A stretch of DNA of 64,000 bases, taken from an uncultured Nitrososphaerota archaeon. Its GTDB lineage: Archaea > Thermoproteota > Nitrososphaeria > Conexivisphaerales > DTJL01. The DNA is taken from contig CAWJIE010000003.1 of NCBI GenBank assembly GCA_963842885.1, positions 352,001 to 416,000 of the forward strand, written 5' to 3'. Position 1 is the stretch's first letter, and every line of letters starts with the position of its first letter. The notes under the pieces are model-generated. The model made no database searches and was not told where the DNA came from. It was given only the letters and a program-made list of their open reading frames with translations. Both the position numbers and the translations under genes were made by a program. This document shows positions 34,300 to 52,986 of the stretch, in pieces.

Positions 34300-34679
34300 G
34301 TCCTGCCATTCGTTAATGGTGTGACCATAGATGATCCCTCCGCGCACGTAATCTGTAACCGCCGTGCCATGCCACACCCCGAGGTACGCTACCTCAATCG
34401 CGGGAGACTGAAAACGAAAGGGAGGATTCCAAGAGAGAAGGGATGCTAGGCACACGAGCGGGTTCGAGGCCGATCCGACCAAAAGGCAGACGAGCATCAG
34501 ACAAGCGCATCGACGTGAGGGCACGGCTGGCATCATTATCACAAAAAGAGAGGGGACCCTATTTAGTTTGCGGGAATCGACGCAGAAATCAAGCCCGATT
34601 GCATGTAGAGTGTGGGATTTGCGAAGGTTCCAGTCCAGCAACCTGACTGCCACGGCCACCGCGAGCATCGCTTTCCGTT

Positions 34680-35226: not shown

Positions 35227-35236
35227 TAACCGCTGT

Positions 35237-35780: not shown

Positions 35781-35956
35781 TACTGTGAAGATGAAATGCG
35801 CTGTTCTCCTATTAGCTTTTCCCAGACGATACTGGGAAACCTGTAAATGCCATCAGACCACCTTCAATGAAGACACGGGAGACGGATGAGAACATTCAGT
35901 GGCGGACTCAAGGCCATACCTCGGCCTTCGAATTATTCAAGAAGGAGAAAAGGGAA

Positions 35957-36538
35957 ATGCTAGCTGTGAAGAAGGCCAAGGCGTCTCTCGTCGCAGCGGC
36001 GCTAGCGGCAGCGATCCTGGTTCTCGTCTTCGCCCCCGTTGTGCCAGAGAAGGTCACCGCCGACAGGCTGAACGGGGGGCTGCTGTTGACGGACGAGATG
36101 AAGAACCCTGACGTCGGAGCCGCTCCAACGCAGATCACCCAGAGCCCTGCCTTCATGGCCGAGACCCAAGGCAGGACCTACGTATTCGAGGGAGCGGTCA
36201 GCGGTTCCATCACCTATTACACCTTTGAAAGCCTTGGGGACCACGTCGCAACTGCGTGCAATTCCATCATCTATCGAGAGGTAACTGACGTGCTGATCGT
36301 CGGCGAACCACTGGGCAACGCATCCTACATAACCAGCATGACGGAGGTCGAGACGCCCTACCTGGACTTCGGGAACATGACCTTCTCTCATTCTGGCGGC
36401 GTCACCTATCACTGCAGTCAAGAATCCATCGCGATGAAGGACGTGCCCTCTCAGGCCGTTTTCTCCTCCGTGATCTTCGCGGTCAGTGGGCTCGGAGCGG
36501 CTTACGCCCCTGGCATAGGCTACCTCTGGTTCGCTTAA
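35957..36538 (+). CDS. Hypothetical secreted/membrane protein
   Basis: Signal-like LVAAALAAAILVLVFAPVVP; hydrophobic C-terminus. Confidence 0.65.
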   Translation: MLAVKKAKASLVAAALAAAILVLVFAPVVPEKVTADRLNGGLLLTDEMKNPDVGAAPTQITQSPAFMAETQGRTYVFEGAVSGSITYYTFESLGDHVATACNSIIYREVTDVLIVGEPLGNASYITSMTEVETPYLDFGNMTFSHSGGVTYHCSQESIAMKDVPSQAVFSSVIFAVSGLGAAYAPGIGYLWFA

Positions 36539-36902
36539 TCCGCCCTACGGTGTTCGGCATTTCGGCTGCGTATTGAATCCCTCTTTCGTTGATAACGATG
36601 CCTAATCAAGGAATTAGAAAGCGAGTCCGCACCGTTGGGGATTCGTAGTTGGCTGAATACTCAACCTGTGGGCATGGGGCTGCGAAAGGGCCGTTCACCC
36701 TAGAGCAGGGGACTGTGCGCGGCTCATCCATTGCTGGACCCATAGCCAGTCATCTTCTCTCCGAACCGAACGTGAAATCGGATTCCGTCAAGCTCTGCAT
36801 CGTGACGCTGTCGGTCTTCCACGGAGGACCACCGAAAGTCTTGGGAGGACCTGTTGTTCACAGGCAAGGCGTTAAATCTCCTGCCGTTCGAAGAACGTCG
36901 CA

Positions 36903-37421
36903 ATGGATGCCAACGCCCCCGTCGACGGGTTCGACCAGTCAAGGGCGGAACTGTTCGAGACGTTAAGTCATCCCGCGCGGATGAAGATCCTCACGGCGCT
37001 GGGCGGCGGCCCTATGGGGTTCGCCGACCTGAAGAGAGTCGCGGGGATAGAGAGCAGCGGCAACATGCAGTTCCATCTTGGCAGGCTGAAGGGTCTGGTC
37101 GCCACCGTCGCTGACGGAAGCTACGTCCTCACGGATGAGGGGAAGGATGCACTACGGATGATGACCGTTTCAAGCCGCACTGGCGATTTTATACGGGTAG
37201 CGAGACGGGTATTCTTGGATCGCAAGACCTGGGCTGTCATCGCATTCTCGTTGGCATTCGGGCTAACCGCCATTTTCCTACCGATATTCCAAACCTTCGT
37301 TCTTCAGCCGTGCAACACGGGCATCTGCCTCGTGGCGTACGTCAGGGCTCATGTCTCGCTGACCTACCTGCTATTCGGCTTCGGCGGCGTCACGCTGGGC
37401 TCGTCGTATTACTTCTGGTAG
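36903..37421 (+). CDS. ArsR-like wHTH regulator with C-terminal membrane domain
   Basis: SRAELFETLSHPARMKIL...GFADLKRVAGIESSGNMQFHLGRL followed by TM. Confidence 0.82.
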   Translation: MDANAPVDGFDQSRAELFETLSHPARMKILTALGGGPMGFADLKRVAGIESSGNMQFHLGRLKGLVATVADGSYVLTDEGKDALRMMTVSSRTGDFIRVARRVFLDRKTWAVIAFSLAFGLTAIFLPIFQTFVLQPCNTGICLVAYVRAHVSLTYLLFGFGGVTLGSSYYFW

Positions 37422-37458
37422 GACTTCGTTAACAAGGGTCGCCGATGTCGCTTCTCAC

Positions 37459-37599
37459 TCATCTTCTCCTGCTCAGCTCGTCTGTGAGCTTCAGGTAGTA
37501 GATGGCCAGCCCCAGGGAGTGACCCATCAGGAATTGTACGTAAGCGGACTTCATGGTCTTCTGGGCTCTGGTCTCGAAAAACTTCCTGAAGCCGTGGAC
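37459..37599 (-). pseudogene. C-terminal remnant of a tyrosine recombinase/integrase
   Basis: Hand translation VHGFRKFFETRAQKTMKSAYVQFLMGHSLGLAIYYLKLTDELSRRR*: HxxR, MGH and catalytic-Tyr region. Confidence 0.78.
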
Positions 37600-37619
37600 A
37601 TTCCCATTTCTCGCAGATT

Positions 37620-38573
37620 CTATTCCTGGACGAGCAGCATTACCAAGGAGCTCTGCGAGTCCAAGATCACCCCCGCCTCAGGAGCATGGTTCGCTGCAAA
37701 GGATGGTGTGCCCTCCCCTAGTACGACCGCGCTATCTGTCCCATTAGGCCCGAAGGTGTAAAAGCTCCCCGGTGCTGCAGGATTGCTGGACATGTCTGCC
37801 ACAAAGGACGTGCTTTCCCCGTCACCGAACGAAAGCTGCACCACGGGGGAGTGGAACATGATCTTCTCATAAGAGACATTGTTGGAGTTGGAACAGAAAG
37901 TTGACGTAATGCCGGAGCTTGAGAACGAAAACACAACAACAACCAAACTTGACCTTGACGCGCCGCTGCATGCGCTAAGATTGTCTATGTCTATTGCGAC
38001 TGGAGGCCCCTGAGGGAGGGTGAGGAGCTGATACCCCAGGAAACTGAAGACTACACCATGGAACGCAAAGGACGACACGTTATAGAGAGTGTCAGCAGCC
38101 ACCGCCTTGTACCAATACGTCACGCCGCCGATCTGCACGGTATCACCCCGAGCCGATGAGGGGACCTGCCCCAACCCCGGAATGAGACCTTGCTGGGCCA
38201 TCGCGACCGATCCGATGATGACCATAATGATGACCAACACGCCGACCACAATCCTATGCCCAACGATGTACCGCCTGAGACGTCCAATCCCGGGCCTGCG
38301 AGACCGCATCTTCTCGACGGCTTCTATGATAGCCAGAGCTTCCTCTCCTTGGTGGGTGAGGGCGTAGCCTCCCTCTGGACGCTCGCAAACGAGGCCCTCC
38401 ATCTTCCCCAGGTGAAACGAAAGAAGCCCGTTGCTGGCAATTCCTGTCTTCCTCTTCAGCCCTGCGAAACCGAGAGGCTCCTCTCCCAAGGCCTCGAGAA
38501 TGCTGACCCTGCTCGGATGGCCCAGGATTTCGAACAGTTCAGCCCTAGACTTCTCCTGCCCAGAGGCGCTCAA
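37620..38573 (-). CDS. ArsR-like wHTH regulator with a TM helix and extracellular domain
   Basis: SRAELFEILGHPSRVSIL...GFAGLKRKTGIASNGLLSFHLGKM, then TM and a beta-rich domain. Confidence 0.82.
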   Translation of the reverse strand: MSASGQEKSRAELFEILGHPSRVSILEALGEEPLGFAGLKRKTGIASNGLLSFHLGKMEGLVCERPEGGYALTHQGEEALAIIEAVEKMRSRRPGIGRLRRYIVGHRIVVGVLVIIMVIIGSVAMAQQGLIPGLGQVPSSARGDTVQIGGVTYWYKAVAADTLYNVSSFAFHGVVFSFLGYQLLTLPQGPPVAIDIDNLSACSGASRSSLVVVVFSFSSSGITSTFCSNSNNVSYEKIMFHSPVVQLSFGDGESTSFVADMSSNPAAPGSFYTFGPNGTDSAVVLGEGTPSFAANHAPEAGVILDSQSSLVMLLVQE

Positions 38574-38584
38574 GAAGCGTCTAC

Positions 38585-39935
38585 GTGACTGTATCGAACC
38601 CGCCTTTAATTATCTTCCTTCCGGGCTCCTTCAAGGAGGGAGGTCAACGCGGGTTGACTTCCAGGCGTCGGGCTTCGACGCCGATGTCAACGCCTGAGGC
38701 ATTAAATCATCACAGGCCCGTCTGGAGATACGTGGGCATTGCCAAGGAAGGCGGGCCGGGCGATTACGGACCGATTTGCCATGGCAGAACCTCAAGCAAC
38801 ATCTCCTATGAGGTAGGAGCGCTCCTGGTCTTGGCATTGATGGCGATGGCCCCTCTGCTCCAGAGCGTCACCTTCGCTGACAACGGAGCGTCCGCGGCGT
38901 CGTCTTTCGATTCCTCCAGCTTGGCCGTCGGGGACTATGCGAACTACTCGTGGAGCAACTACTCCTTGAGCTACCTGGTGGGGTTTCACCCCGGCGGGGC
39001 GTCCGCAAGCGATTCCCTTCAATTCCTGAACACGACATGTGATCACATATGACGAGATGAAGTTTGGGTGGCGCATCGTGGCTGTCTATCAAGACACCTA
39101 CGTGGTTGACTACTCCCTGTCATTGGCAGGGATTCAGGGAACTGGGGCTTCGTTAGATTTCCAGCGTAATGTCATTGTCTCGAGGACGAACAACAGCGTC
39201 TATGACCTGAACGGCACCCTGTATGGGACATGGCCCTACTGGCTTGCGCCCAGCTACCTGTCTCTTCAGGGCAATTTCACGCCCGCCCATGGCTTTCCAG
39301 AGGGTGTCACGAACTTCACGACGGGCCAGCCCACCATCCAGTTCAATACGCCAGACGAATTCCTCAGCCTTCCCTTGGGCAACGGGATGCCTTCAAGACC
39401 CCTCAACTCAACGGACTTCCTTCGCTCGACGCTGAACATAACAGCGCTGGGGACCTTCGATACGGATAGACTGATAGTGACCTATCCCTGGGGAGTGATT
39501 ACCAACCTGACTGGCGTCTCAGGCCTTCCTAACGGCATGATGGCCATAGGGTGGGTGTCGCCGATCTGGTTGGGCATCTACGATCGCTTCAGCGGCATCA
39601 TGCTCGCGTATCAGTTTTCCACCTCATGGTTCACGGACGACATACTGTTGCACTCCTCCTTCGATGTCTGGCAGATCGGGTCCGCCAATGAAAGCCTGAT
39701 ACTGACAGCCACGAATCTACCCATAAAGGCGGACGTACCTGTCAGCCCAGGGGCGCCCGGCAGCGGATACACAACCCTTCTTGCGGCTGCGGTCGCCGTA
39801 GTAGCGGCTGTACTCTTATCGGTCGCCCTCTTTCGTCGGCGCAGGATGAAGAGGGCACAAGGCGGCCCTCAGGGGAGGAGCGCCCAAGCCCCTCCTACCC
39901 TACGACACAGCAAGCCCAGTCCTAATGGAGCCTAG
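38585..39935 (+). CDS. Secreted, C-terminally anchored protein; frameshift near 39040, start uncertain
   Basis: Signal-like LLVLALMAMAPLL, LAVGDYANYS, many N-x-S/T sequons, C-terminal TM plus RRRR. Confidence 0.6.
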
Positions 39936-39940
39936 AGGCC

Positions 39941-41260
39941 TTGCGCCGGGCAAGCTTGCTCAGAGTCTTGGGTTTCGTGGGGCTCGGGCTGTTGCTGATG
40001 GGCTTGTCGATGCTCGCCAACGCGCATTTCGGTCCTGAGAACGCAATCTTCGGCATGGGGAGCCCGACAACAAGCCAGGGCAACACGACCGACTCTTTCA
40101 CGGTGTTCCTTAAGCCCACCGACAGGATGCTCCTGTCCTACTCCTCCAATTCCTCGAACGTGAGCTTCGATGCCTCAATCATCTCTCTGGCCACCGGTTC
40201 CACCGTGTTCCAAGAGGGCGTTCCCCCTGGCGGCAGCCTCCAGGTGTCCTTTTCGCCTTCTACAAGAGGGGCATATTTGGTCAGGGTCAATCTGTCATCT
40301 TCTTCGCCCAATCAACTGGTGACAAGTATCGTTTCGATTTACGGCGGGACCCCTTCCGACTTTGAAGCGTATGCCTACCTTCTTATCGCCCTGGGCGCGG
40401 CCATGGCCCTGTTGTGGATCGCCGGGTCCAGAAGGGCTCAAGCGGCCGGGCTCACGCACAAATCAGGTCGACAGGAATACCTCGCGGATGGTCAGCAAGG
40501 GCACCGGACCTTCTTCGTCCTGCTAAAGTGGGAGCTCATTGCAAGCAGGAAGGTGTTCTTCGGCCTGCTGGTCTTCTTCCTCATGATGTACAGCGCTGGC
40601 GGGTTCACACCGAACTATCTGAGCTCATCGATAGGTGGGATCGCCCCGACCATAGCCGACCTGTTCAATCCAACCCTCAGGCCCACGTCAGACTGGTTCA
40701 ATCTGTTCCCCATCGTGGTCGCGGTTTCGGCATACAGCTTCTCCTACGAACAGGACAAGCTCATCCTCAGGTCTCTCAAACTCAACCCAATCAGGTCCGC
40801 CACCATCTTCGCTTCGAAGGTCTGCGCCCTCCTGGCGGTGACCTTGGTCCCCATCGCGGTCGCCTTGAGCTTCACCCTCGCGCTGTACGACCCGAGGCTC
40901 TTCCTCGGAGCCCCCCTGCTTGCGTGGGGGAACCTTCCGATGTGGGTCGAAGCCTACATCCTCTACGGATTCGTCATGGTGGGGCTGTCGTTGCTGCCGG
41001 CCGTGTTCTTCGATAACGCCGTCTATGCCTTCGTCGCCCCGTTGTTTGTATCATTCCTGATTCAGACCGAAGGCTTCGGCCTGTATGGCGCGATACCCTC
41101 CGACGTATGGACCACTGTGGTAATGCAGATTCAGAGCTACCGTGACTGGGGTGCAACTCTGGGCAAGACGCTGCCTGCGGTCATCCTAGCAACGGGCATT
41201 CCTCGCCATCTCCCTGATTCTGTTCGAAATCAAGGAGGGAGAGTGACGCGAGTGGCTTGA
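39941..41260 (+). CDS. ABC-2-type permease with N-terminal extracellular domain
   Basis: LLKWELIASRK, SYEQDKLILRSLKLNPIRSATIFASK, multiple TM helices. Confidence 0.75.
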   Translation: MRRASLLRVLGFVGLGLLLMGLSMLANAHFGPENAIFGMGSPTTSQGNTTDSFTVFLKPTDRMLLSYSSNSSNVSFDASIISLATGSTVFQEGVPPGGSLQVSFSPSTRGAYLVRVNLSSSSPNQLVTSIVSIYGGTPSDFEAYAYLLIALGAAMALLWIAGSRRAQAAGLTHKSGRQEYLADGQQGHRTFFVLLKWELIASRKVFFGLLVFFLMMYSAGGFTPNYLSSSIGGIAPTIADLFNPTLRPTSDWFNLFPIVVAVSAYSFSYEQDKLILRSLKLNPIRSATIFASKVCALLAVTLVPIAVALSFTLALYDPRLFLGAPLLAWGNLPMWVEAYILYGFVMVGLSLLPAVFFDNAVYAFVAPLFVSFLIQTEGFGLYGAIPSDVWTTVVMQIQSYRDWGATLGKTLPAVILATGIPRHLPDSVRNQGGRVTRVA

Positions 41261-41315
41261 CCCCGAGCCTCACGGGAGCCACCAACCTGGAGACACGGGA
41301 AGGCTGGCGATTGAG

Positions 41316-41995
41316 GTGAGCCATCTCAGCAAGAGGTTCGGTTTCACCCTCGCTCTGGACGACGTAAGCATTAAGCTCCCGCAAGGCAACGCGCTCCTGA
41401 TCGTCGGCCCGAACGGGAGCGGGAAGAGCACGTTGCTTAAGGTCCTGTGCGGCATCCTAAGAGCGGCCCAGAGGTTCTCTCGTTCGCGTATTGGGGGTTG
41501 ACCCCTGGAGGGAGCGACATATCCTGTTCTCCAGGGCCACGGCAGCTTTCGAAGACTATGCCTTCCCGGAGCTTGCCAGCGGGGAGGATTATCTCAAGTT
41601 CGTGGCCGAGCTTCGCTGTGTCTCCATCGACCGAAGCGTCGGAGAGATCATGGGCATAGAGGACTTCTGGTCGAAGCCTATCAGAGGCTACTCGTCAGGC
41701 ATGAAAAGGAAGCTCGCGCTCGCGCAGGCGCTGGTCGGCAGGCCGGAGCTGATCATCTTGGACGAGCCACTGGTCGCCCTAGACCGCCAGTCGAAGGACC
41801 AGCTGATCGACATATTGGCTCAGAGGAGGGCTACAGGGACGACCCTGGTCATATGCAGCCACATACTGACAGGTCTGGAGCGGATAGCCACGGAGGATGA
41901 TCGTGCTTATCAACGGAAAGATGATCTATGAGAGCGATATCTCCGATTCCAGTGCAGCGCTCGAGGAAACCTACAAGATCTTGGAAACAACGTGA
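41316..41995 (+). CDS. ABC transporter ATP-binding protein with two frameshifts
   Basis: GPNGSGKST (41316 ORF); YSSGMKRK and ILDEP (41491 ORF); tail in a third frame ending at TGA41995. Confidence 0.8.
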
Positions 41996-43245
41996 ATGTG
42001 GAGCCAACCAGACCCCTCGTCTCGCTCCCGTCTATGTGGCACTCCCACGTTTCAAATGAATCTGCTGTGGTCCAATTCGGTCAGCACGAAGCCAGAGAAC
42101 GTTATGGGTCAGCCATGGAAGGTCCGCCAATTGAGACGCTCCTCCCGCCGATGATTGGCGTATCTATCGCCGCTGGAAAAGAAACCAATATCATCAAACT
42201 GACGAGACTGGCTGGCCTTTTCGGAACCTCGGTAGTGGCGGAGAATCTTGGCTGTACCGAAGGCGCCAACGTTGCGGATGCCGCCGCCCCCCTCTTGAGG
42301 TTATTTACAATGCAGTCGTCCTGAGAGTGGCCATGATTCTGACATGCCGTAAACCCATGCCAACATGTCACGCTCCACTTGGTTGCGTTGTTAGGACCAA
42401 GCACCCGCGCACCCTGACCGGGTTCCACCGATACGGGACGCAAATGCACGTTGTCCATCTAATCACCATCGATGAGGTCCGCTTTCCGAGAACTCGCCTT
42501 TCCATGGCCCTGGCTGTGTCGGTTTGGCCGTATCCTGCGAAGTTATCTGAGGAGCATCGAATGCGTCACCAAAAGGCGTTGTGGGACGGGGAAAGACGTT
42601 AACTGCCATGGTCCGTTCTGGCAGGTACTCTATTACTCTTGAGTCGCTGGGACATCCGTCGACGCGCGCAGGTGGCTGAATTCGCGGAACGGATTGAGTC
42701 GAAGCACCTTTCCTTTCCTTGCCTTGCCATGGGCCACTTTCCCCCGCTGAACCGTTCCATGAACCCACGGACGAGCCCGGAATGAGCAAGGATGTGATGA
42801 TGGGCTGGCATTCGCACGGCGATGAATTGGCATGATTCGAGGGGCATCGATTCGACGAGCTCGGCGAATGTAAAACGAGGCATGTCTGACTTAGCAACGA
42901 AGCTGAACCGGGCTTGGCATGTTCGACTGGACTTCACTTGATGGGACGGGCTGGACCTAGCTTGGTAGTGGAAGAAAGCTCGTTCGGCTCACAGCTCAAT
43001 TCGGGGACGACGGTTGGCGACCTTGCGACGCACAGCCAAGACATCGGTGGACCGGGAACGTTATACTAACAGAAATGAATCAAAAAATACACAGGGAAGA
43101 CATGCAAGAATGTCCGCAATGGTATAACATCTCAACTCGGAACTCGGCTCTTGGAGCCGATCGGGCTGAGTGCACGAGCTCTATGTAATTCCGGCCACCA
43201 TACGGGCTACCGGAAAATGGGCGTCAGACATCAAACGTAAGGGGT

Positions 43246-43292
43246 TAAGTACATGGGGATGCACTAAGTACACGGGGATATCCCACGTACTT
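43246..43292 (+). promoter_or_regulatory. Repeated operator-like motif AAGTACRYGGG over the ATPase promoter/start
   Basis: TAAGTACATGGGGAT and TAAGTACACGGGGAT direct copies plus inverted CCCACGTACTT around the palindrome GGGATATCCC. Confidence 0.5.
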
Positions 43293-43323
43293 CGAAGAGG
43301 CCCCGAAGACGGACAGGAAGGAC

Positions 43324-44421
43324 ATGTTCGACTACTCCGAGGAGTTCCAGAAGATGACCTCCTCTCTATCGGGAGGGGCGAGGATGATCATAATAAAGGG
43401 AAGGAGGAGGACGGGCAAGACTTCTCTCCTCCTGTCCTCCCTGAACGAACTCGGGCGCCCGTACGTCGTTCTTGATGGGAGGGCCTTCTCCTCCTCCCCT
43501 CAGGTGAGGCGGGAGGAGTTCGTCAAGCTGCTCGAGGACGGCCTGAACGAGTTCCTGAGGAGGGAGAGGAGGCTGGGCGCCAAGGTGATCGATGCGCTAA
43601 AGCACGTCCAGGGCCTCGAACGAACCTCAGGTGCCATCCCCGGCCTCTCCCTTCGCTGGGGGCCCCTGCCCCGGGACGCCGTGAACGTCTCCTCCATCTT
43701 CGATGCCCTTTCAGACGAAGCGGCCAGACAGAAGACCTCCTTTATCATCGCCATAGACGAAGCGCAGGAGTTCAGGAAGGTCATGCGCTACGACCTGACG
43801 AGCGTGCTCGCGCACGCGTACGACTACTGCCCGGGACTCAAGTTCGTGGTCACCGGCTCGGAGGCGGGGATGCTCCACAAGTTCCTTAGGGTCGATGACC
43901 CCGAAGCCCCCCTCTTCGGACGGGCGATGGTCGAGATAGAGCTCTCCGGCCTGACGAAGGAGAGGAGCGTCGAGTACCTTCGGGAAGGGTTCAGGCAGGT
44001 GGGGATGGAGGTGCCTGGGGATGTGCTCGAAGGAGCCCACCTGAGGTTCGACGGGATAATAGGCTGGCTGACCTACCTCGGCTTCAGGGCCAGGGAGGAG
44101 AGGGAGCTCGACCAGAAGGTGATTGAGGAGACGGCCTCGCTGGCATCCAAGATGGCGGCCTCGGAGTTCAGGAACTTCCTGGGCCTGTACAGGTCGGAGA
44201 GGTATCGGACAGTGATGAAGAGCCTGGCTGGAGGGAGCCTTTCGTGGGCGGACCTGAAGAGGGCGATCGAGTCCAAGGAGGGGATGAGGGTCGGACAGGG
44301 GGAGGTCACTAAGGTGCTCCACAACCTCGAGGACGCCGGCTTTGTGGCGAAGGATGAGGGAGGAGCTTATTCCATCTCGGAGCCGATGATAAGAGAAGCG
44401 GCCTCGAAGGGGATCATATAG
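43324..44421 (+). CDS. Archaeal ATPase family P-loop NTPase (ATPase_2 type) with C-terminal wHTH
   Basis: GRRRTGKTS Walker A, IAIDEAQE Walker B, VTGSEAG, PLFGR, DGIIGWL; the family-like N-terminus YFEEAPK begins at 43288, upstream of the first ATG. Confidence 0.88.
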   Translation: MFDYSEEFQKMTSSLSGGARMIIIKGRRRTGKTSLLLSSLNELGRPYVVLDGRAFSSSPQVRREEFVKLLEDGLNEFLRRERRLGAKVIDALKHVQGLERTSGAIPGLSLRWGPLPRDAVNVSSIFDALSDEAARQKTSFIIAIDEAQEFRKVMRYDLTSVLAHAYDYCPGLKFVVTGSEAGMLHKFLRVDDPEAPLFGRAMVEIELSGLTKERSVEYLREGFRQVGMEVPGDVLEGAHLRFDGIIGWLTYLGFRAREERELDQKVIEETASLASKMAASEFRNFLGLYRSERYRTVMKSLAGGSLSWADLKRAIESKEGMRVGQGEVTKVLHNLEDAGFVAKDEGGAYSISEPMIREAASKGII

Positions 44422-45100
44422 GAAGGATATGGTACATAGCCCTGCACTTGGTATATGGACATAGCGCGAGAGGGGCCGAGGCGAAGGACCCCGCCTTTAA
44501 TCTGCCATCGAGCGACAAGAGGTGGGTCCTTTTGCGTCGCTGGCGGAAGACAAGGCTCTGCATCTCCGCTGTGATGGTTCCAAGCCGGCCCGTCAATCGG
44601 TATTTAAGGCAAAGGCGCGGCCATTGAGGAGTATTTAAGGAGAAGACGATGGCGGTCGAGCTCTATTGTGAGGTTTCGAATCAGCCATAGATGGAAGACC
44701 TCGGATCTCGTCCAGAGAAGCGAAGGTGGATGCGGGATGCCAAAGGGCAGACGCGTAAACGGTTTGAAGCGATGGAACCATGCACGGCCTCCTTTTAACG
44801 CACTTTGCAGGGGCTTCCGGGGGCTCAGGAGCCGCCTTGGCCTAGATGATGAGCTTCCCTGGCGTTAGCGCGGGGAGGAATGCACGACCTCAGGCATTGC
44901 CCCTTTTCCTACGGCAGCGACAGCCATCCTGTCGGCCTAGGTAGGTCTCTAGTGTCGGTCCCATGTCATGATGTAGAGCGGGGGACGGCCATCCGGATCG
45001 AGACAGGCTCCCTAACCAGATGGAGTGCGCTATTGAGCTGGTTTGATCGTGAAGACGATGTTGGCAGTCCCGTGCATGTACGGGTTCCTTTCACCAGACT

Positions 45101-45900
45101 CCACTAAACTCTCGGCTCAATGAGACAAAGTGCCCTCTTGAGTTATTTTGAAGATGAGACGGAGCTTAGCAGGGCCGGGGCATCCGAGCTCCGTCCCCGT
45201 CGATTTTGCTAACGCGCCCCTAGGATGAGACGGAACGCCTTTTCAGGCCGATTTGGAGATGAGACAGCGTTAGCAGGTCCAGGGCGTCAAAATTTCGGTC
45301 CCCCTTTCCTGCTAACGCGACCGTCAGATGAAACAAGATGCCATTTTGGGCCATTTGGACGATGAGACGATGTTAGCAAAACCGGGGGCGCCAGTTTCTC
45401 CTCCGTCTAGACTGCCATTGCACCCGTCGGGTGAGACGAACGGCGCTTCCAGGTCGGTTCTGAGATGGGACGATATCAGTAGTTGGAGGGAGTCGAAATT
45501 CCGTCCTCTGCGATTTGCTATAGTCACCGCTTAACGAAACAAAGCGCCCTATAGGGCCGTTTTGACGATGAAACGGGCTCTAGCAAAGCCAAGGCCTCGA
45601 AATTTTGCCCCCTCCGACTTGCTAGAGTCGCGGCTTCAATGAGACAAAGCGCCCCCTTGGGTCATTTTGGCTACGAGACGAACTCTAGCAAAACCAGGGG
45701 TGTTCGAATCGTCTCCTCCGGGCTAATAACGCATCTATCTGATGAGACGAACGGCGCTTTTAGCCCGTCCTGACAATGAGACGATGTTATTAGCCACGAG
45801 GCCTCAAAATTCCCCGCCCTCCGCGCTAATAACGCCCCCTTCCGATGAGACGGAACGCCTTTTTGGCCCATTTTAACGATGAAACGATGTTATTAGGGCC
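45101..45900. repeat. Non-coding array of 8 structured units with a 103-105 bp period
   Basis: ATGAGAC-like box pairs at 45120/45154, 45225/45259, 45328/45362, 45431/45465, 45534/45568, 45639/45673, 45742/45776, 45845/45879 (always 34 bp apart), each pair enclosed by inverted arms. Confidence 0.92.
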
Positions 45901-46492
45901 GAGGGCGGTTCGTCGCCGCCATCGCCATGTCGTCGCCCCAAGCCCAACTGGCTGGCGTTCTTATGGGGGCTCATCTGAACCACTGGTCTTCGATCACGTC
46001 CTAGAGCTCTTCTTTGAACGGTTCTTTAGTGGCAAGCGGGAGTCTCCGGTGGCGGCTCTGGTTCCGGCTCGCTCTTCGCCTGGGATAGTAGAGCTTGACG
46101 GACCTACTTCTAGCATTCGCGTTGCCGACCCTCATCGCAATGCTCTAGCTAACGTAACCGTTCAAGACCTTCCGAAACTCTACCATCTCCACTATGACAA
46201 CGGCAGAAGCATGAGGGGCGATTTAACCACCCATCTTCAGTCGAGGGGGCTGAGCGCGGAAGCTGCTTCAGGTCCTCTTCTTCCGTTGTGTTCCATCATC
46301 GGGACTTCTTGGCAAGTGTCCGGTTCGGGACCTGCAGCTAGGCTCGGGCAGCGAAATCCCCGTCCGGAAGTGAGGAGTCTAGAAGGCCAGACTTTGGCAT
46401 GTCCTTTGTCCGTCGTATCATGGAGTCTGATCTGCCAATCGACAGAGGATCTTCTCCCCAGCTCTTTTAAGTTGAGCAATGACCGAGTATAC

Positions 46493-46618
46493 ATGACAGA
46501 GAACAAAACCGATGACAAGGATTCCGACGAGGTCGAGCTGCGCGCGGCCGTCAAGGAGCGTTTTGAAATCAGAAGAGAGATAGAAGGGCTCCGGCGCGAA
46601 GTCGGGAGCCTGTCCTGA
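46493..46618 (+). CDS. Small coiled-coil-like protein (41 aa), convergent with the integrase
   Basis: MTENKTDDKDSDEVELRAAVKERFEIRREIEGLRREVGSLS; TTTTAAG TATA-like box at ~46465. Confidence 0.5.
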   Translation: MTENKTDDKDSDEVELRAAVKERFEIRREIEGLRREVGSLS

Positions 46619-46623
46619 CCCCG

Positions 46624-47997
46624 CTACTTGCCGAGCAGGACCCGCACGACGTCCGGCGGGATTGCCTTCCCTTCTTGCACGTACTTCGTCAATATCCGCC
46701 GGGTGCGTTCGTCGTTTTCCTCCTGCCTGGCCTCGAGCTCTTCTATCCTTCTCTGTTGCTTCATCAATTCCGGATCGGTTCCCTCTACGATCAGAGGGAG
46801 CTCCTCGTGAATCGGTGCTCCGCAGCCCCCGCAGAACTCGTTCATCCTAGGGTTCTCCCGCCGGCAGTTCGGGCAGAGGACAAACTCCGGCTGGGGCTTC
46901 TGGGTCTCGACGCCACCGTACACGTTCTCCAAGACTTCGTTGACGTCCTGTGCCGCGAGCTCGATGTACACCGCCGGCATCTTGCTTCCGGGCGCCCACC
47001 CGAACTTCCTCCTCATTATCTCCTCGTTCAGGTTGTGCTTGGCGTCTTTCGTGGCGGACATGTGCCGGAAGATGTTGGGATGCACGGGCCTCGGGATCCC
47101 CGCCACCTCGCCCAGCCGGCGCAGCGCCCTGTAGCAGGCGTCGTAGCGCCAGCGCTTGCAGACCAGCCTTCCTCGTTCGGTCATCAGCCAGAGCGGGGCC
47201 TTAGGGTCATCCCTGTATGGGTGCGTCTCAAGCCACTGCGTGAGCAGCATCCTCGACCTCTGCACCACCAGCCGTCGCCCGACCGTTTTCGTCATCTCAT
47301 CGGTGAAGTCGATCAGTACCCTGTACTCCTCCTTGCCGTTCCTGATGACCCGCTCATGCCTGATGTTGCCTATCAGGAGGCGCAGAAGCTCGCCCGGCCG
47401 GAGACCCAGCTCCTCGGCGACGGCGAGGAACGCCTTAATCATGATGTCGCTGGTCGCCCTGATGAGAGCTTCGAACTCCTCCTCCTCTATCACCGAGGGC
47501 CTCTTCTTGTCCGATTGCTTGAGGTTCGCCTTAAGCCCGTCGACCAAGTCCGGGTAGTGGTGGTCCTCCCTCCACTTCTCGTACTTTCCCTTGGGAGCCT
47601 TCAGCCACTGGTAGTATCGCTTGATCGTTATGACTATGTCGCGCTCGGTACGCGGTTCGTAGATGCCAGAGTAGAGCCACTTCTTGAGCTCGGCCACTTT
47701 CTTCTGGTTCATCCTGATCAGGGTCGTCCTGTTGTCGAACGCCCACATGGCCAGGTCCTGTAGGATGATGACGTACTTGGCCACCCTCACGTCGGATATG
47801 TTCTGGCCTATCAGGACGTCCACGAACCTCAGGATGGAGCGGCAGTCCTTCGGGCTTATCCTCCTCGGCCTTCCGGTCTTCTGCTCGATGGTGCCTTCCC
47901 GCGCTGACCGCTTGAGATGGGCGATCGCGCGCTCGATGCGCCGCTTCCCGCCAAAGATGTCGTGGTCCTCGACCTGCGCACCCGCGATTTGGTTCAT
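46624..47997 (-). CDS. Tyrosine recombinase/site-specific integrase with C-terminal zinc ribbon and coiled coil
   Basis: GLRPGELL (Arg), TKT (Lys), HPNIFRH, FGW, AVY (Tyr), CPNC...CGGC; TATA-like element ~25 bp upstream of ATG47997. Confidence 0.92.
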   Translation of the reverse strand: MNQIAGAQVEDHDIFGGKRRIERAIAHLKRSAREGTIEQKTGRPRRISPKDCRSILRFVDVLIGQNISDVRVAKYVIILQDLAMWAFDNRTTLIRMNQKKVAELKKWLYSGIYEPRTERDIVITIKRYYQWLKAPKGKYEKWREDHHYPDLVDGLKANLKQSDKKRPSVIEEEEFEALIRATSDIMIKAFLAVAEELGLRPGELLRLLIGNIRHERVIRNGKEEYRVLIDFTDEMTKTVGRRLVVQRSRMLLTQWLETHPYRDDPKAPLWLMTERGRLVCKRWRYDACYRALRRLGEVAGIPRPVHPNIFRHMSATKDAKHNLNEEIMRRKFGWAPGSKMPAVYIELAAQDVNEVLENVYGGVETQKPQPEFVLCPNCRRENPRMNEFCGGCGAPIHEELPLIVEGTDPELMKQQRRIEELEARQEENDERTRRILTKYVQEGKAIPPDVVRVLLGK

Positions 47998-48217
47998 GAT
48001 CGGGTACGGCGAATTACCTTTTAAGACGGGTAAGGGATTTGGATGTCTTCGTGGAGGCGCGCCCACCGCATTTTCACTGCTACCGGAATGCCCAGGGTTA
48101 GTCATGATGGCAGCTGCTGCCCCGCATGGCGACACCATGATGGCCCGGATTCCGCCATCTCCTTGGCAACATTCATAAGGCGATTCAGCCGAAAAATACT
48201 AGAATCGGAGAGAGGGC

Positions 48218-48751
48218 TTGACCGGAGAAGGCAAGGCGCAGAAGGTGCAGGACTCGTTGAAAGAAGTGATGCGGGGATTCCCGCAGGGCGTGACGGTGGT
48301 CACCACGAAGGCGAAGGGCAGGTTATGGGGTGTCACCGTGAGCTCGTTCACGACGGTGTCCCTCGAGCCGCCGCTCATCCTGGTGTCATTGATGAAGAAC
48401 GTCCCCACCTCGGGTGCCTTTGCGTCGGCGAGCGGCTTCACGGTGAACTTGGCAGATGACTAGAAGTCCGTTTCCGAAAGGTTCGCTGGCATGGTGCCTC
48501 TTGGAGACCGGTTCGAAGGACTGCGCTATCACTTCGCGAGCACCGGGTATCCCGTCATAGAGGGCGCCATGGGGTATTTCTACTGCAAGAGATGGAGGAA
48601 GTACGACGGCGGAGACCACTTGCTGGTACTGGGCAAGGTCATCGAAGCCAAGAGGCTCAACCACAAGCCTCCCCTGGTCAATTTCAAGCAGCAGTATGCC
48701 ACAGTGGTTCTCCCCGAAGTGGGTTCGCTCACAAAAGAGACACTCTGGTAG
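48218..48751 (+). pseudogene. Flavin reductase family gene with an in-frame TAG at 48461-63
   Basis: FPQGVTVVT, GVTVSSFTTVSLEPPL, NLADD*KSVSERFA, GGDHLLVLG all in one frame. Confidence 0.8.
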
Positions 48752-48787
48752 CACTGGACCGGCGCAGGGGGCTCCGATAGGTCTTTA

Positions 48788-49039
48788 TCACTTCAGAATC
48801 TGGTTCTGTCTCTCGGATATGCTCCTCAACTTGTCCAGATGCGGAGCCAGCTTTGACGGATCCGAAGGACCCAGGTCCTCCAAGCAGGACACATACCCGT
48901 TCATTTCGTTGAGCATCCCCTCGACCGAAGGCATGCGTCGGAAGGGGGCACCGAAAGGCCAAACCAGCTCCTGCTTGCCCTTCTGAGTGATCCCATAGCG
49001 TCTGTCGTCGTTCTTCGAGACTAGGCCCTCCTGAGTCAA
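48788..49039 (-). pseudogene. 5'-truncated PadR-like regulator
   Basis: LTQEGLVSK..DRRYGITQKGKQEL wing and C-terminal helix only; the N-terminal HTH is missing and the fragment abuts the macrodomain stop. Confidence 0.6.
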
Positions 49040-49043
49040 ATCC

Positions 49044-49643
49044 TCAGGCTATCGGCATCTCGATCCTGCCGAAGTCGTCTTCATAGATTTCGTAATCGCC
49101 CTCGGAGAACAGGACGAACCTGACCTCCTTCAAGGACCTGTTGCCCTTGAGCAGGAAGTCGATGGCTGCGTCCAACGCTACGCGGGAGGCCTTTTCGATG
49201 GGATAGCCGTATGCACCGGTGGAGATGGAAGGGAAGGCGATCGACCTAATTCCGAGAGACTGGGCGGAATCCAGACAGTTCCGGTAGGCCCTCGATAACA
49301 GCTCCCCTTCGCCCTCACCGCCACCTCGCCAAACCGGGCCGACCGTGTGGATGACGTATCTAGCTGTCAGGTCCCCACCTGTTGTGACCACTACCTCACC
49401 AGTCGGGAGGCCATCGGGATACTTGGTCTTCCGGATCGCCTTGCACTCTTCCTGGACCTTGAGGCCACCCTTTCGATGGATGGCACCGTCCACTCCACCC
49501 CCACCCAACAAGCTCGAGTTGGCCGCATTTACAATGGCGTCGCAGTCTTGGTCAGTGATGTCGCCAAGGACAAGGCGAACCACGGTGTCACCTACGGTGC
49601 GCTGCAATCCACCATCGCCCAAGGCACCCTCACTAACAAACAT
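49044..49643 (-). CDS. ymdB: Macrodomain O-acetyl-ADP-ribose deacetylase
   Basis: GDIT, AIVNAANSSLLGGGGVDGAIH, VIHTVGP, AFPSISTGAYGYP. Confidence 0.92.
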   Translation of the reverse strand: MFVSEGALGDGGLQRTVGDTVVRLVLGDITDQDCDAIVNAANSSLLGGGGVDGAIHRKGGLKVQEECKAIRKTKYPDGLPTGEVVVTTGGDLTARYVIHTVGPVWRGGGEGEGELLSRAYRNCLDSAQSLGIRSIAFPSISTGAYGYPIEKASRVALDAAIDFLLKGNRSLKEVRFVLFSEGDYEIYEDDFGRIEMPIA

Positions 49644-50067
49644 GACTCCGCATGCGCAGACGTGAGCAGAGACATGGCCTTGAACCGTCTCCAGCCGTAC
49701 GACCACTCTGACAATGCCGATGCTTATCAGGCAGACCCGGAAACCGGTTATCCTCTCATGCTTTCTCTCAACTGAAGTCTGAGGAAGCGTACGAGAGACT
49801 CTGAGCTCTACGAAGACGAATACGAAGCCATTTGGATTGAGGACTGCTATGGTTCAAGGCCGAAGACCATGCGCTTGGGGACCGTCGTGGACGCGGAAGG
49901 GTTCACTACTGAATTCGAGAGGGCCGGCAGAATACATGCGACCTGAGGGTATGATTCCCCCACTGGCCCATCAAAAGAGACGTCAGGACTGGAGAGCAGG
50001 GCAAGCCTTTGGGCGAAGGAAGCCACTTCGAGTTCCCATCGGGATCCTACAGCGAGGCCTCGGACTG

Positions 50068-50766
50068 CTACGCCGAGAGTGCACCGAACTCCTTGACGAT
50101 GTCTACGCCGTGGCTCGTTCCTATCCTGTTCGCGCCAGCTGAAGTAAGGGCCGAGAAGGACTGAGCGTCCCTGATGCCCCCTGAAGCCTTTACGCCGAGC
50201 TTCGGACCGACGACCCTGCGCATCAGGGCGACGTCATGTACAGTCGCGCCGCCCGTACCGTATCCGGTGGAGGTCTTGACGAAATCAACGCCGGCCTTCA
50301 CTGAAACCCTACAGGCCGCTTCCTTCTCTGCGTCGGTGAGATAGCAGGTCTCGATGATCGCCTTGACCAAGACGTAGCCGTCCATCCTCTTTGCGGCGCG
50401 GACCACTGCCCTGGCATCCCGAAGGACCAAATCATAGTCATGCGACTTCTCTGCGCCGATGTTCATCACCATGTCGATCTCCTCGGCTCCGTCCTTCACT
50501 GCAGCCTGAGCCTCTCTGACCTTGATCCCTGTCTTCGAGAGGCCGAAAGGGAAGGAGACCACCGAACACACCTTGACCGAGGAGCCCCTGACCTTCTCCC
50601 AGCATAGCGCCACGTGCGCGGGGTTGACTGTAACTGTGCAGAAATGGTATCTGACCGCCTCCTCGCACGCTTCCAGAATCTCCTCCTCTGCGGCGTTCGG
50701 TCGGAGGAGGGTATGATCTATGATGGAGGCAGCGCTCTCTGGCGTCCACCCGGAAGATCTCTTCAC
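50068..50766 (-). CDS. deoC: Deoxyribose-phosphate aldolase
   Basis: IDHTLL, EIDMVMNIG, KAIIET, FVKTSTG, VKASGGIR, RIGTS; start uncertain. Confidence 0.93.
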   Translation of the reverse strand: MKRSSGWTPESAASIIDHTLLRPNAAEEEILEACEEAVRYHFCTVTVNPAHVALCWEKVRGSSVKVCSVVSFPFGLSKTGIKVREAQAAVKDGAEEIDMVMNIGAEKSHDYDLVLRDARAVVRAAKRMDGYVLVKAIIETCYLTDAEKEAACRVSVKAGVDFVKTSTGYGTGGATVHDVALMRRVVGPKLGVKASGGIRDAQSFSALTSAGANRIGTSHGVDIVKEFGALSA

Positions 50767-50941
50767 ACCCCATGGAGGTGGCGTCAGGTTGAAAACGGTT
50801 CCTGTCGAGTTGCACAACGAGGGCATTCTAAGAAACCACTCCATGGCGAACACTCGACCAGACGCACGATCGTTGAAATGACCCGGCCCGTCGACACAAA
50901 CCACTTATACCGCGAAGTCGATATTGGAATGGAAGATCACC

Positions 50942-51181
50942 ATGAAGGTCGGCGTTTGCGGCATCTCCTGCGAAGTATGCCCTAAGATGGTCAAAGGCAC
51001 CTGCCCAAACGGTGAACAGGGCTGCGTGCCGAAACAGAACCCATTCTGCCAGATCTCCACCTGCGCCTTCAACAGCGGAGTCAGGCTCTGCTTTGAATGC
51101 GCCTACTTCCCCTGCGAATTGACGAAGACCGGGCCGATAAACTACAACTACTGTTCCTTCCTAGTGGGCAAGTCTGAGTAG
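50942..51181 (+). CDS. DUF3795-like Cys-rich metal-binding protein
   Basis: GVCGISCEVCP...CPNG...C...C...C...LCFECAYFPC. Confidence 0.75.
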   Translation: MKVGVCGISCEVCPKMVKGTCPNGEQGCVPKQNPFCQISTCAFNSGVRLCFECAYFPCELTKTGPINYNYCSFLVGKSE

Positions 51182-51500
51182 GGGCGGGCTTTGCTGAAGC
51201 CGTGTGCCTCTCGGCGTCCCTTCGGATGTACCTAGCTGATTATTGTCGAGTTCCTGAAGAAGTAGTAGAAGGTGGCTATACCCACAGCATAGAAGCTGCT
51301 CGCCAGGAAGACTAGTCGCAACCGCCGAGCCCAACAGTTGGAGTATGGGAGGGAACTGAGGGACTTGCTGAATTCCCTTGTCGTAAATTTGTAGTCGTCC
51401 TATGCTCCTGACAGCAGACAGGACTGGTGCACGTCATCTGTCGAAATATCTTCATCATGCTGACGATGCTTATTAGACGCTAGAAAGAAGAGATGGTGGC

Positions 51501-51704
51501 ATGTTGCAGGAACTCAACAGGCGACTCGAAGCCTTGTCATACTGCAAACTTCGGATGTTTCAAGATCCGTCCGGCTTGGTGTGGTTGGAGGATTTGCGCG
51601 CGGACCCGTCGGCGCAGCCCATCAGGATAGGTTCCCTTACTGACGCCGCTGGGTACGTCGAGGCCATGGAAAGAGAAGAGCGCATGGTCGCCGTGATGAA
51701 CTAG
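51501..51704 (+). CDS. Small hypothetical protein
   Basis: 67-aa ORF with a TATA-like element upstream. Confidence 0.45.
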   Translation: MLQELNRRLEALSYCKLRMFQDPSGLVWLEDLRADPSAQPIRIGSLTDAAGYVEAMEREERMVAVMN

Positions 51705-51792
51705 GGCTGACAACTCGAAGGGAAGTCCCTCATTCCTCTCGATATTGGACAAGGACGTGACCTTCTAATGATTGTTGCGCGGTCGAGAAAGG

Positions 51793-52986
51793 TCAAGCCC
51801 GTTCCAAGACCGTCGCGAATCCCTGTCCTCCGCCGACGCAGAGCGAGGCGACTCCATACCTTTTGCCGCTGACGTGGAGCTGCCTGGCCAGAGTGCCCAC
51901 GAGCCGAGCGCCGGTGGCGCCTAGCGGATGGCCGAGCGCGATGGCGCCCCCATGGAGGTTCACCCTCTGATGGTTAATCCCTAGCTCCTTCATGGCGTAG
52001 AGGACGACCACGGCGAAGGCTTCGTTGATCTCCCACAGGTCGACCTCCTCGGGCTTTAAGCCAGCCTTGGCGAGGGCTTTGAGGCTGGCCGGCACTGGTC
52101 CCTTCCCCATCAGGCTTGGCTCCACGCCGGCCCAGCCGAACGAGATGACCTTGGCCAGCGGCGAAGCTCCATGTTCCTTGACCTTGGCTCCGGACATCAG
52201 TGCGACCAGGGAAGCTCCTGCGCTGAGCGTGGACGAGTTGCCTGCGGTAATCGTTCCTCCCTCCTTGAACACGGATGGTAGCTTCGAAAGCTGTTCCAAA
52301 GAGGGGTTCTTCCTGATGCTGAGGTCCTCCTCCACCGTAATCTCCTTCCTTCCGGACTCCACTCTGATCGGCATCATCTCGTCCTTGAACCAGCCGGCTT
52401 CGAGGGAGGTGGCCGCCTTCCTGTGCGACTCTACCGAGAATGCATCCATCGCCTCTCTCGTTATGCCGCTTTCGCTGGCCAACTTCTCGGCGGTTAGGCC
52501 CATTACGTAACCGACATTCATCTGGTACTTCATGTATTCGGGCCTCAGGATGAGCCTGGGGTTGACGGCCATGTGCGGGTTGTTCCACATGGGGACGTGC
52601 GTCATGTGTTCCATGCCGCCTGCGAGGACGACATCCGAATGACCCGTCATGATCTCGAATGAACCGGTAGAGATGGCGTTCATGGAGGAGGCGCACGCCC
52701 TGTCCAGCGCCAGCCCGGGGACGGAGACAGGGAGGCCGGCTAGGAGGATGGGGTGCCTCCCACCGTAGAGCCAATTTTCGTCGACCTGGAGGGCACAACC
52801 CGTGATCACGTCGCCGATCTCATGACCTTCGATCCCAGTCCTCTGCATGACCCTGCCGATCAGCAGTGCGAGAGCCTGATCCATCCTGACGGAGTTGAAG
52901 ACGTCCTTCTCAGGCTCAGCGGGCTTGGATTTGGAGAAAGGCGTCCTTTGAAAGTCGATGACATAGACGTCTTTCAATCCAATCAC
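51793..52986 (-). CDS. Acetyl-CoA C-acetyltransferase (thiolase)
   Basis: DRACASS, AGGMEHM, TAGNSS, EINEAFA, GGAIALGHPLGATG, LCVGGGQG. Confidence 0.94.
   Translation of the reverse strand: MIGLKDVYVIDFQRTPFSKSKPAEPEKDVFNSVRMDQALALLIGRVMQRTGIEGHEIGDVITGCALQVDENWLYGGRHPILLAGLPVSVPGLALDRACASSMNAISTGSFEIMTGHSDVVLAGGMEHMTHVPMWNNPHMAVNPRLILRPEYMKYQMNVGYVMGLTAEKLASESGITREAMDAFSVESHRKAATSLEAGWFKDEMMPIRVESGRKEITVEEDLSIRKNPSLEQLSKLPSVFKEGGTITAGNSSTLSAGASLVALMSGAKVKEHGASPLAKVISFGWAGVEPSLMGKGPVPASLKALAKAGLKPEEVDLWEINEAFAVVVLYAMKELGINHQRVNLHGGAIALGHPLGATGARLVGTLARQLHVSGKRYGVASLCVGGGQGFATVLERA

Follow-up and report, generated by a model that had tools for sequence, protein, structure and literature searches.

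A tandem array of paired-box hairpin units from a rare archaeal mobile element and its possible link to ParB-type proteins

The array, its boxes and its hairpin units

We analysed a 64,000-nt stretch of DNA, hereafter the window, from an uncultured Nitrososphaerota archaeon (GenBank assembly GCA_963842885.1, contig CAWJIE010000003.1, positions 352,001 to 416,000 of the forward strand). Between an ATPase gene and a tyrosine recombinase gene, the window contains 2.2 kb (44422-46623) with no convincing open reading frame (ORF), and within this interval lies a tandem array at 45084..45913 on the plus strand. The array consists of eight units of 101-106 nt, which together carry 16 boxes in eight pairs with the consensus ATGAGAC; the strand label denotes the strand on which the boxes read ATGAGAC and is not a claim on the acting strand. 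The array may be the cis-acting repeat module of a rare mobile element, which we found only in this archaeal genus and in related metagenome DNA. It is a real, constrained repeat family and apparently an undescribed one: word searches of open-access texts returned no description of such an array, and supplementary material might list related arrays or proteins.

By sequence and pattern search, the first boxes of the pairs start at 45120, 45225, 45328, 45431, 45534, 45639, 45742 and 45845. The distance from box 1 to box 2 is 34 nt in all eight pairs, and the unit periods are 105, 103, 103, 103, 105, 103 and 103. An earlier sequence-only reading of this DNA had reported these boxes, spacings and periods, and all were borne out, as was every box variant that it listed. 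The pattern RYGRRAC-N27-AYGRRAC matches the window nine times, eight of them in the array and one outside it; 100 shuffles averaged 0.08 matches. The exact heptamer ATGAGAC occurs 15 times in the 64 kb, nine of them inside the array, and this total is within chance (shuffle mean of 9.8; 8 of 100 shuffles reach 15).

Unit 1 (45084..45188) has ATGAGAC in both boxes (45120-45126 and 45154-45160). Unit 2 (45189..45291) carries its boxes at 45225-45231 and 45259-45265 and has hairpin arms of the type GCGTTAGCAGG / CCTGCTAACGC, while the boxes of unit 3 (45292..45396) lie at 45328-45334 (ATGAAAC) and 45362-45368. The most deviant is unit 4 (45397..45497), with GTGAGAC at 45431-45437 and ATGGGAC at 45465-45471. 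ACGAAAC (45534-45540) and ATGAAAC (45568-45574) are combined with arms of the CTAGAG type in unit 5 (45498..45603). Unit 6 (45604..45704; boxes at 45639-45645 and, as ACGAGAC, at 45673-45679) has the arms TTGCTAGAGT / ACTCTAGCAA, and unit 7 (45706..45810; boxes at 45742-45748 and 45776-45782) the arms CCTCCGGGCTAATAAC / GTTATTAGCCACGAGG. The arms of unit 8 (45811..45913; boxes at 45845-45851 and, as ATGAAAC, at 45879-45885) constitute a 20-nt inverted repeat with 90% complementarity. A probable ninth, degenerate unit precedes them on the same strand at 45000..45083, at the array end far from the partner gene: its positions 45042-45066 share 76% identity with the box-2 region of unit 3, and the covariance model introduced below gave no match to it at E values up to 10.

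The window units are mutually 47-70% identical (a median of 57%), with a majority identity of 94% in the boxes compared to 55-85% in the remainder of the unit. A/T runs between the boxes are spaced by approximately 10 bp. Tandem Repeats Finder did not report the array because its units are only 47-70% identical; a general search of the window for direct and inverted repeats recovered the array families. The sequence-only reading had seen no convincing ORF over the array, and this held: the longest ORFs within it measure 66-68 aa, or 102 aa with TAG read through. A coding repeat was rejected, since no frame stays open across the units and the 103-nt period (five of the seven) is not a multiple of three. 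A pyrrolysine reading was likewise rejected, as TAG readthrough opens no frame and no PylC-like match was found.

At Rfam gathering thresholds, only two tRNAs pass in the whole window, and by E-value the best matches in 44000-47000 (E 0.51-8.8) are all far under threshold. C/D-box sRNAs, hammerheads and other ribozymes were thus dismissed as Rfam families, none reaching its gathering threshold at the array. Readings of the internal loop as a k-turn, hammerhead, H/ACA or bulge-helix-bulge element, made by eye, misfit the consensus spacing and lack Rfam support. Promoter and terminator scans stayed at chance level. The sequence-only reading had named a degenerate coding repeat, a match to a known Rfam family or the lack of any counterpart as findings that would speak against it; we found no coding frame, no Rfam match and a counterpart of the same geometry.

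RNAalifold, applied to an alignment of the eight window units, predicted that each unit is a nested hairpin of ~95 nt, in which the outer arms, one on either side of the box pair, form helix P1, and the space between the boxes contains an inner hairpin (P2). P1 comprises three outer pairs, a 3x3 internal loop and 11 inner pairs. The large internal loop that follows has, on its 5' side, approximately 10 variable, C-rich nucleotides and then box 1, and, on its 3' side, three nucleotides, box 2 and GAT; P2 begins at the final C of box 1 and corresponds to the small dyad that the sequence-only reading had correctly placed between the boxes. The GGG..AAATT..CCC linker of that reading is also real: linkers of ~10 nt carry an AAATT core between G and C runs. 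Runs of T4-T5 occur on the plus strand within every unit. Independently of the fold, inverted repeats with 55 nt between their arms bracket the box pairs, namely I2 (20 nt, 90% complementary), I3 (16 nt), I4 (17 nt) and I18 (10 nt, 100% complementary).

Most P1 arms (45200-45320, 45370-45390 and others) carry GCTAA / TTAGC, a core that also appears in the operator half-sites of KorB (OB) and KorA (OA) as printed in PMC11790492. With five letters in common, this match may be due to chance.

As the sequence-only reading had proposed, the units were aligned and a covariance model was built from them, which scored all eight window units at 64.8-98 bits, with covarying P1 arms, and the rest of the window at 21 bits or less. 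The proposed search for similar arrays and their neighbouring genes also yielded results: counterparts in a genome of the same genus (G004) and on a metagenome contig (L191), with helix-turn-helix (HTH) and ParB-family genes beside them. Across 60 relatives, G004 alone was found, with two good units and a degenerate third, and L191 opens inside an array of which it holds two units. The model detected no second array in the 2.03-Mb, 87%-complete genome of the window. Over the three loci, 11 of 12 units space their boxes by 34 nt and one by 33 nt, with periods of 102-105. The same unit design is maintained in three loci with different flanks.

Wider scans added no copy beyond L191. A pattern scan of viral contigs gave 21 stretches, of which the model confirmed none, and protein-based scans of viral contigs with P0006 (a ParB-family protein, see below) and A5 found no relative. 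In the genomes of GTDB species, a three-box pattern gave 97 stretches; of the 80 scanned with the model none was real, the sole match being a 34-bp repeat of Rhodoblastus at 24 bits. From JGI metagenomes the pattern returned at least 118 stretches, 78 of which were scanned with the model, and one, L191, was real; further metagenome copies may exist. The PLSDB plasmid collection held no DNA match to the array. The Rhodoblastus repeat (L081:4411-4580, contig JBKDZW010000107.1 of a Rhodoblastus sp. metagenome-assembled genome) consists of five tandem 34-bp units, in each of which a GC-rich palindrome comes after an initial ATGAGAC (GCGCGCAAGCGCGC). We set this repeat aside, as it fits the box pattern only and looks unrelated.

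We assessed pairing in a model-guided alignment of the 12 units from the three loci. Standard pairs filled 84.7% of 268 cells, compared to 33-48% after a shift of the partners by 1-3 columns and to 75.4% in 500 shuffles, all of which stayed below the observed value, in an alignment that is itself fitted to the covariance model. Two-sided changes affect 12 of the 23 pairs, eight of them among the 11 inner-P1 pairs. The arms fall into approximately five classes (TTAGCA/TGCTAA, CTCTAGCA/TGCTAGAG, GTTATTAG/CTAATAAC, the deviant unit 4 and the G004 forms), so the number of effective independent events is far below the 12 sequences. In inner P1, 74 of 88 cells pair within the unit versus 55 of 77 when the 3' arm is matched with the 5' arm of the next unit, and arms drawn from different units form a mean of 7.18 of the 11 pairs; the junctions that discriminate for within-unit pairing are those of units 3/4 and 6/7. 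To judge from the alignment, base pairing of the arms is a real constraint. By analogy with replication template switching, which can make and maintain hairpins without selection (PMC8794818), mutation of this kind could be an alternative source of the arm covariation. The long-range covarying hairpin is the feature that most constrains any answer. It goes beyond the sequence-only reading, as do the degenerate further unit, the counterparts and the ParB, HTH and integrase context.

Signals of strand and molecule differ between the helices. The 12 units contain 42 G.U and 15 A.C cells, unevenly split: 12 and 10 in inner P1, 23 and 5 in P2, and 7 and 0 in outer P1. RNAalifold recovered P1 and P2 on the plus strand and P1 alone on the minus strand. 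With RNA energies, P2 is stabler on the plus strand in 9 of 12 units; with DNA energies it has no strand preference (plus better in 2 of 12, one equal), and the P2 hairpins are weak (-0.1 to -6.1 kcal/mol). The plus-strand bias of P2 may in part reflect a conserved T-run opposite a variable purine run. Single units folded only modestly better than their shuffles on either strand (z of +1.2 to -4.3). Inner P1, the best-supported helix, has strand-neutral mismatches and therefore resembles a palindrome at the DNA level. Among the 15 runs listed, no RNA run contains the array region.

Partner genes and the flanks of the window copy

On L191, the least decayed of the copies seen, approximately 25 nt separate the last unit from the stop codon of a gene on the minus strand that encodes a 284-aa protein. 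In G004, the array directly adjoins a homologous gene (P0001, 246 aa) that lacks the N-terminal part. The G004 copy (L011:3275-3913, contig C95) has as its other neighbours ORFs without a family match and one HNH endonuclease gene. Its surroundings look like mobile-element DNA, and its flanks are unlike those of the window.

The 284-aa protein is rare, with five relatives among 5.8 billion proteins and presence in one of 401 genomes of the class, and it matched no Pfam, NCBIfam or PHROG family. An AlphaFold model of its family was poor overall (pLDDT 42.5), except for a three-helix N-terminal HTH, on the basis of which the protein looks DNA-binding. A profile search of 1.84 billion representatives found one distant relative, P0010 (E 7.5e-5), which scores 22.0 bits on Pfam HTH_ParB, under the cut-off of 22.6. 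Neither ParB nor Tas was matched by A5 or A6 in searches of PDB profiles, an hhalign comparison of the 284-aa family with the ParB-family protein described next gave a probability of 0.3%, and in the ESM Atlas the 284-aa protein fell into 'hypothetical' clusters only.

The 284-aa gene of L191 is preceded by a partial ParB-family gene, inside which the contig ends. Full-length forms of this gene encode P0006-P0008 (458-464 aa; the 462-aa protein hereafter). P0006 has an N-terminal ParB domain with GxRR and ENxxRxDLxPIEEA motifs, followed by a proline-rich linker and C-terminal zinc ribbons. Against the PDB, the eight best of 11 matches listed were Noc, Spo0J, ParB or a ParB-like nuclease-domain protein (E 0.002-0.035, residues 14-149), and tblastn of P0006 reached annotated ParB/RepB/Spo0J genes on Thermus plasmids (36.7% identity, E 2e-4). 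The ESM Atlas placed the protein in ParB-HTH/KorB clusters at 0.88-0.92, which we take as a lead only. By its sequence, the 462-aa protein belongs to the ParB family. The ParB-family gene was not found in the genome of the window or in four congeners, G004 being among the genomes without it. No ParA gene occurs among the neighbours of the window array, and none was seen on L191, which ends before one could appear. RNA-binding or Nop domains were not found near any copy.

Past its last unit, the window array resembles L191 for only ~90-150 nt, with blastn similarity to 46006 and tblastx similarity, in another frame, to ~46066. This stretch is a short 3' relic of the HTH gene (45914..46069, minus strand): its last 12 codons are recognisable at 45930-45965 on the minus strand (50% identity, E 0.07), with no similarity beyond. 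Judging from this remnant, the window array is an orphaned copy whose partner genes have been deleted down to a short relic.

The gene for a tyrosine recombinase of 504 aa follows on the minus strand at 46624..48138, with matches to Pfam Phage_integrase (E 3.3e-10) and a PHROG integrase family; on the NCBIfam XerA/integron-integrase model it scores 51 bits versus a cut-off of 220. The recombinase, a mark of an integrated element, is no conserved neighbour of the array: it does not adjoin the array in G004, on L191 or in the contigs of the public runs X9 and X10. No direct or inverted repeat of at least 14 nt that could represent att sites connects 28000-44500 with 46000-52000. The protein is unusually long: ~100 aa extend its N terminus, and at the C-terminal end a double zinc ribbon leads into a charged tail.

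The region recurs at ~90-98% identity in contigs from four public DNA runs with the labels soil, peat and freshwater; the comparison uses assembled contigs, in which rare forms may be missed. The gene-free stretch upstream of the array (44422..45083) is ~92-96% identical in them. Three of the four runs have 210 extra letters between 45709 and 45710, which amount to two more units inserted exactly at a unit border, one of them with a box region like that of unit 3. The dominant contig of run X5 lacks 44820-45499 (680 nt, including units 1-4), and two variants coexist in this run at different depths. The contigs of X9 and X10 diverge from the window at ~46209-46246. Strains therefore differ in their unit number (6, 8 or 10), and the array does not always have the integrase beside it. 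Between strains, the array differs by ~2-7%, the same as its flanks.

Two copies of GTATTTAAGG, 32 nt apart, lie at 44600-44641, approximately 450 nt upstream of the array. The pair is TATA-box-like for an archaeon and could represent promoters pointing at the array.

Candidate roles of the array

The sequence-only reading had taken the array for a selected set of functional sites rather than a simple duplication, a CRISPR or a coding repeat. This part of its interpretation is supported by the 94% identity of the boxes, the spacing kept in 11 of 12 units and the counterparts elsewhere; its two proposals, protein-binding DNA and an RNA precursor, come out close in probability. We tentatively favour the possibility that the array is a centromere-like DNA platform for ParB-type proteins, orphaned in the window. 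The units would act as double-stranded DNA, with the 16 boxes as a multivalent, evenly spaced loading platform for ParB-type or HTH proteins that would serve the segregation or regional silencing of the element; in the window, such a platform would have been left orphaned, with the tyrosine integrase 0.7 kb away. That proteins bind the boxes, that they do so on duplex DNA and that the purpose is partition is what we infer from the following observations.

A repeated motif directly downstream of a parB-type gene pair on L191, and next to the HTH gene in G004, would by analogy occupy the place of sopC and parS in type Ia partition operons. The linear geometry is constant, with almost no indels among units despite a median divergence of 43%, which argues for duplex DNA, since a folded RNA with varying stem and loop lengths would not need it. 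The near-equal G.U and A.C counts of inner P1 are unlike those of a typical RNA helix and argue in the same direction, as do the lack of RNA-binding or Nop domains near any copy and the DNA-binding type of the neighbours. Unit numbers that vary between strains resemble those of repeat centromeres. The box comes within 1-2 letters of GTGAAAC, one half of the canonical parS and a string that 13 papers contain together with 'parS'; this likeness is a weak lead and not a test.

The F-plasmid sopC is described as consisting of 12 direct 43-bp repeats, in each of which SopB binds a 16-bp inverted repeat (PMC3177203). The array shares with it a tandem direct-repeat layout right downstream of the last gene of a ParB-family operon, a dyad in each unit and multiple units. 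It differs in that the window units measure 103 bp and are only 47-70% alike, a direct heptamer pair replaces the single palindrome as the conserved motif, the dyad arms are not conserved but covary, no ParA is seen and the host is an archaeon. In P1 parS, a single site of ~80 bp just downstream of parB, heptamer A boxes and hexamer B boxes surround a bend; they stand in mixed orientation and are read by the ParB HTH. Our heptamers are like a parS half-site, and their inter-box A/T runs ~10 bp apart may be compared with the bent DNA of P1, whereas here the sites form a tandem array and no IHF-type site or B boxes were identified.

Several observations weigh against a platform of duplex DNA. 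A protein that reads the duplex does not need arm covariation, which would require template switching or a single-stranded state. P2 and outer P1 together have 30 G.U versus 5 A.C cells, and P2 favours the plus strand with RNA energies, as described above. The boxes are direct and not inverted, there is no 16-bp parS palindrome, and the inverted repeats P1 and P2 vary in sequence. No ParA gene was seen (on a contig, L191, that ends too early to show one), and the ParB-family gene stands beside the array at one locus only, L191. The link of the 284-aa protein to ParB-HTH is weak: indirect, under the Pfam cut-off and dependent on a poor model. Binding and a role in segregation are predictions.

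The main rival is an array of structured RNAs, which we consider doubtful, though not remote: the array would be transcribed and cut in its A/U-rich linkers into ~95-nt hairpin RNAs, each of which may show two AUGAGAC boxes in the large P1-P2 internal loop, where they may serve a protein partner or a purine-rich non-canonical helix. Arms that covary and pair across the boxes, the P1 plus P2 fold on the plus strand versus P1 alone on the minus, the G.U excess and RNA-energy bias just cited and the position of the best conserved part, the boxes, in predicted unpaired regions are all consistent with it. Against this stand the lack of any RNA run with the region among the 15 runs listed, the lack of a G.U excess in inner P1, the modest folding of single units relative to shuffles, neighbours of DNA-binding type and the absence of an Rfam match. 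Moreover, the favoured plus strand is convergent to the partner gene, its tight placement against the stop codon of that gene points to co-transcription on the minus strand, on which P2 is poor, and the T4-T5 runs on the plus strand could stop archaeal RNA polymerase. The covariation, too, amounts to approximately five arm classes in paralogous units of three loci and could be explained by template switching. Cyanobacterial NsiR1 arrays of tandem sibling small RNAs consist of about a dozen diverged 70-110-nt units, each with a promoter and a terminator; the array resembles them in its tandem diverged units, each a potential small structured RNA, but no promoter or terminator is recognisable per unit. 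The gross plan is also that of TIGR stem-loop arrays, which are described as having variable but consistently palindromic arms, conserved short boxes, processed linkers and a protein gene beside the array (PMC12045711); the sequence-only reading, which knew TIGR arrays as short units only, had missed this tandem stem-loop type. The arms, boxes and linkers here match that plan, as does the neighbouring gene for a small helical protein, whereas the boxes are 7-nt direct repeats and not C/D motifs, the unit is ~3x a 36-nt tigRNA, no hypervariable segment exists (even the most variable blocks have a consensus and a majority identity of 55-65%), and the array neighbours have no Pfam Nop match, with the provisos that Tas proteins are very divergent and that the fold model is too poor to search. 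The ParB-CTPase fold is reported to be sometimes fused to RNA-related domains (PMC12704722). It is rather unlikely, though not remote, that processed ~95-nt hairpin RNAs, and not DNA, are the partner of the ParB-family and HTH pair in a new RNA-protein module of archaeal mobile elements; such RNAs would perhaps act as a multivalent scaffold or decoy of TIGR-like build without Nop or guide spacers. TIGR- or CRISPR-type guide RNAs, whose variable unit segments would specify targets, are less credible by far. Tandem stem-loops with conserved short boxes would suit them, and the 10-11-nt segment before box 1 is less conserved (65%), but it keeps a C-rich consensus and is no more variable than the arms, and is therefore a diverged copy and not a spacer. 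The two 8-12-nt spacers of a guide array are missing, the only Pfam Nop match of the genome is a housekeeping gene on another contig, hhalign gave a probability of 0.5% for the 284-aa family against Nop5, and the sole Rfam CRISPR match has an E of 8.8. Unlike in CRISPR, the units are 47-70% identical throughout, and no cas domains occur in the neighbours scanned.

A role as single-stranded DNA, in which the hairpins would act on an exposed strand as an origin, a priming or packaging signal or telomere-like fold-back repeats at a linear end, is improbable. Telomere-like fold-back repeats are found at the ends of the linear replicons of Streptomyces, and L191, starting inside the array, would fit a physical end; yet a contig end in a repeat is the usual assembly break, and the array is internal in the window and in G004. 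Covarying arms with strand-neutral inner-P1 mismatches, a P2 without strand preference under DNA energies and a dynamic unit number agree with this proposal, while P2 is weak as DNA and no rolling-circle Rep, relaxase, terminal protein or primase was seen at any locus. Folded single strands are also the active form of integron attC sites, imperfect palindromes of 57-141 nt in which structure rather than sequence is conserved. That the units are such an attC-like array, or other recombination sites for the nearby tyrosine recombinase, is extremely improbable, even though they are imperfect palindromes of attC-like length, the recombinase gene lies 0.7 kb off and several arms end in ..AAC / GTT.. 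facing inward. The recombinase is by score not of the integron type and is not beside the array in G004, L191 or the X9 and X10 contigs, the array lies behind the 3' end of its gene and not at an attI side, the ~10-nt linkers leave no cassettes between the units, and the paired, conserved direct boxes have no attC counterpart. A functionless satellite, expanded by unequal crossing-over with palindromes kept by template switching alone, would account for a window copy that has lost its partner genes, for the varying unit number and for an array no better conserved between strains than its flanks. It is very improbable in view of boxes kept at 94% with fixed spacing and almost no indels while the units diverged to 47-70%, and of the same design at three loci with differing flanks. 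Taken together, all readings other than the centromere, the RNA array and single-stranded DNA have only a small share of the probability.

Defined partition or maintenance sites are very few in archaea, and the roles of mobile-element ParB-fold proteins are described as reaching far beyond segregation (PMC12704722). The array represents a repeat platform tied to a ParB-type gene pair, with units that are selected, or at least maintained, as hairpins. If it acts as DNA, it could be an unusual centromere whose DNA must fold; if it acts as RNA, ParB-family proteins could for the first time be linked to a structured RNA array. Knowledge of archaeal plasmid and virus maintenance would grow in either case, within the limits set by a very rare family (three loci and five relatives of the partner protein) and an orphaned window copy.

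Other features of the window

The gene upstream of the gene-free stretch, at 43324..44421 on the plus strand, encodes an archaeal-type ATPase with an MCM_C winged-helix domain (Pfam ATPase_2, E 2.3e-12; MCM_C, E 5.5e-11); it is not an array neighbour in G004 or L191. The 146-aa ORF at 41491-41931 may be a gene fragment, as its match to the ABC-transporter ATPase domain is confined to the C-terminal part (profile positions 91-136 of 137). A 90-nt tRNA call on the minus strand at 8528-8617 scores 53 bits on the Rfam tRNA model, while ARAGORN reported it without an amino acid and with an odd anticodon; this tRNA may hold an intron.

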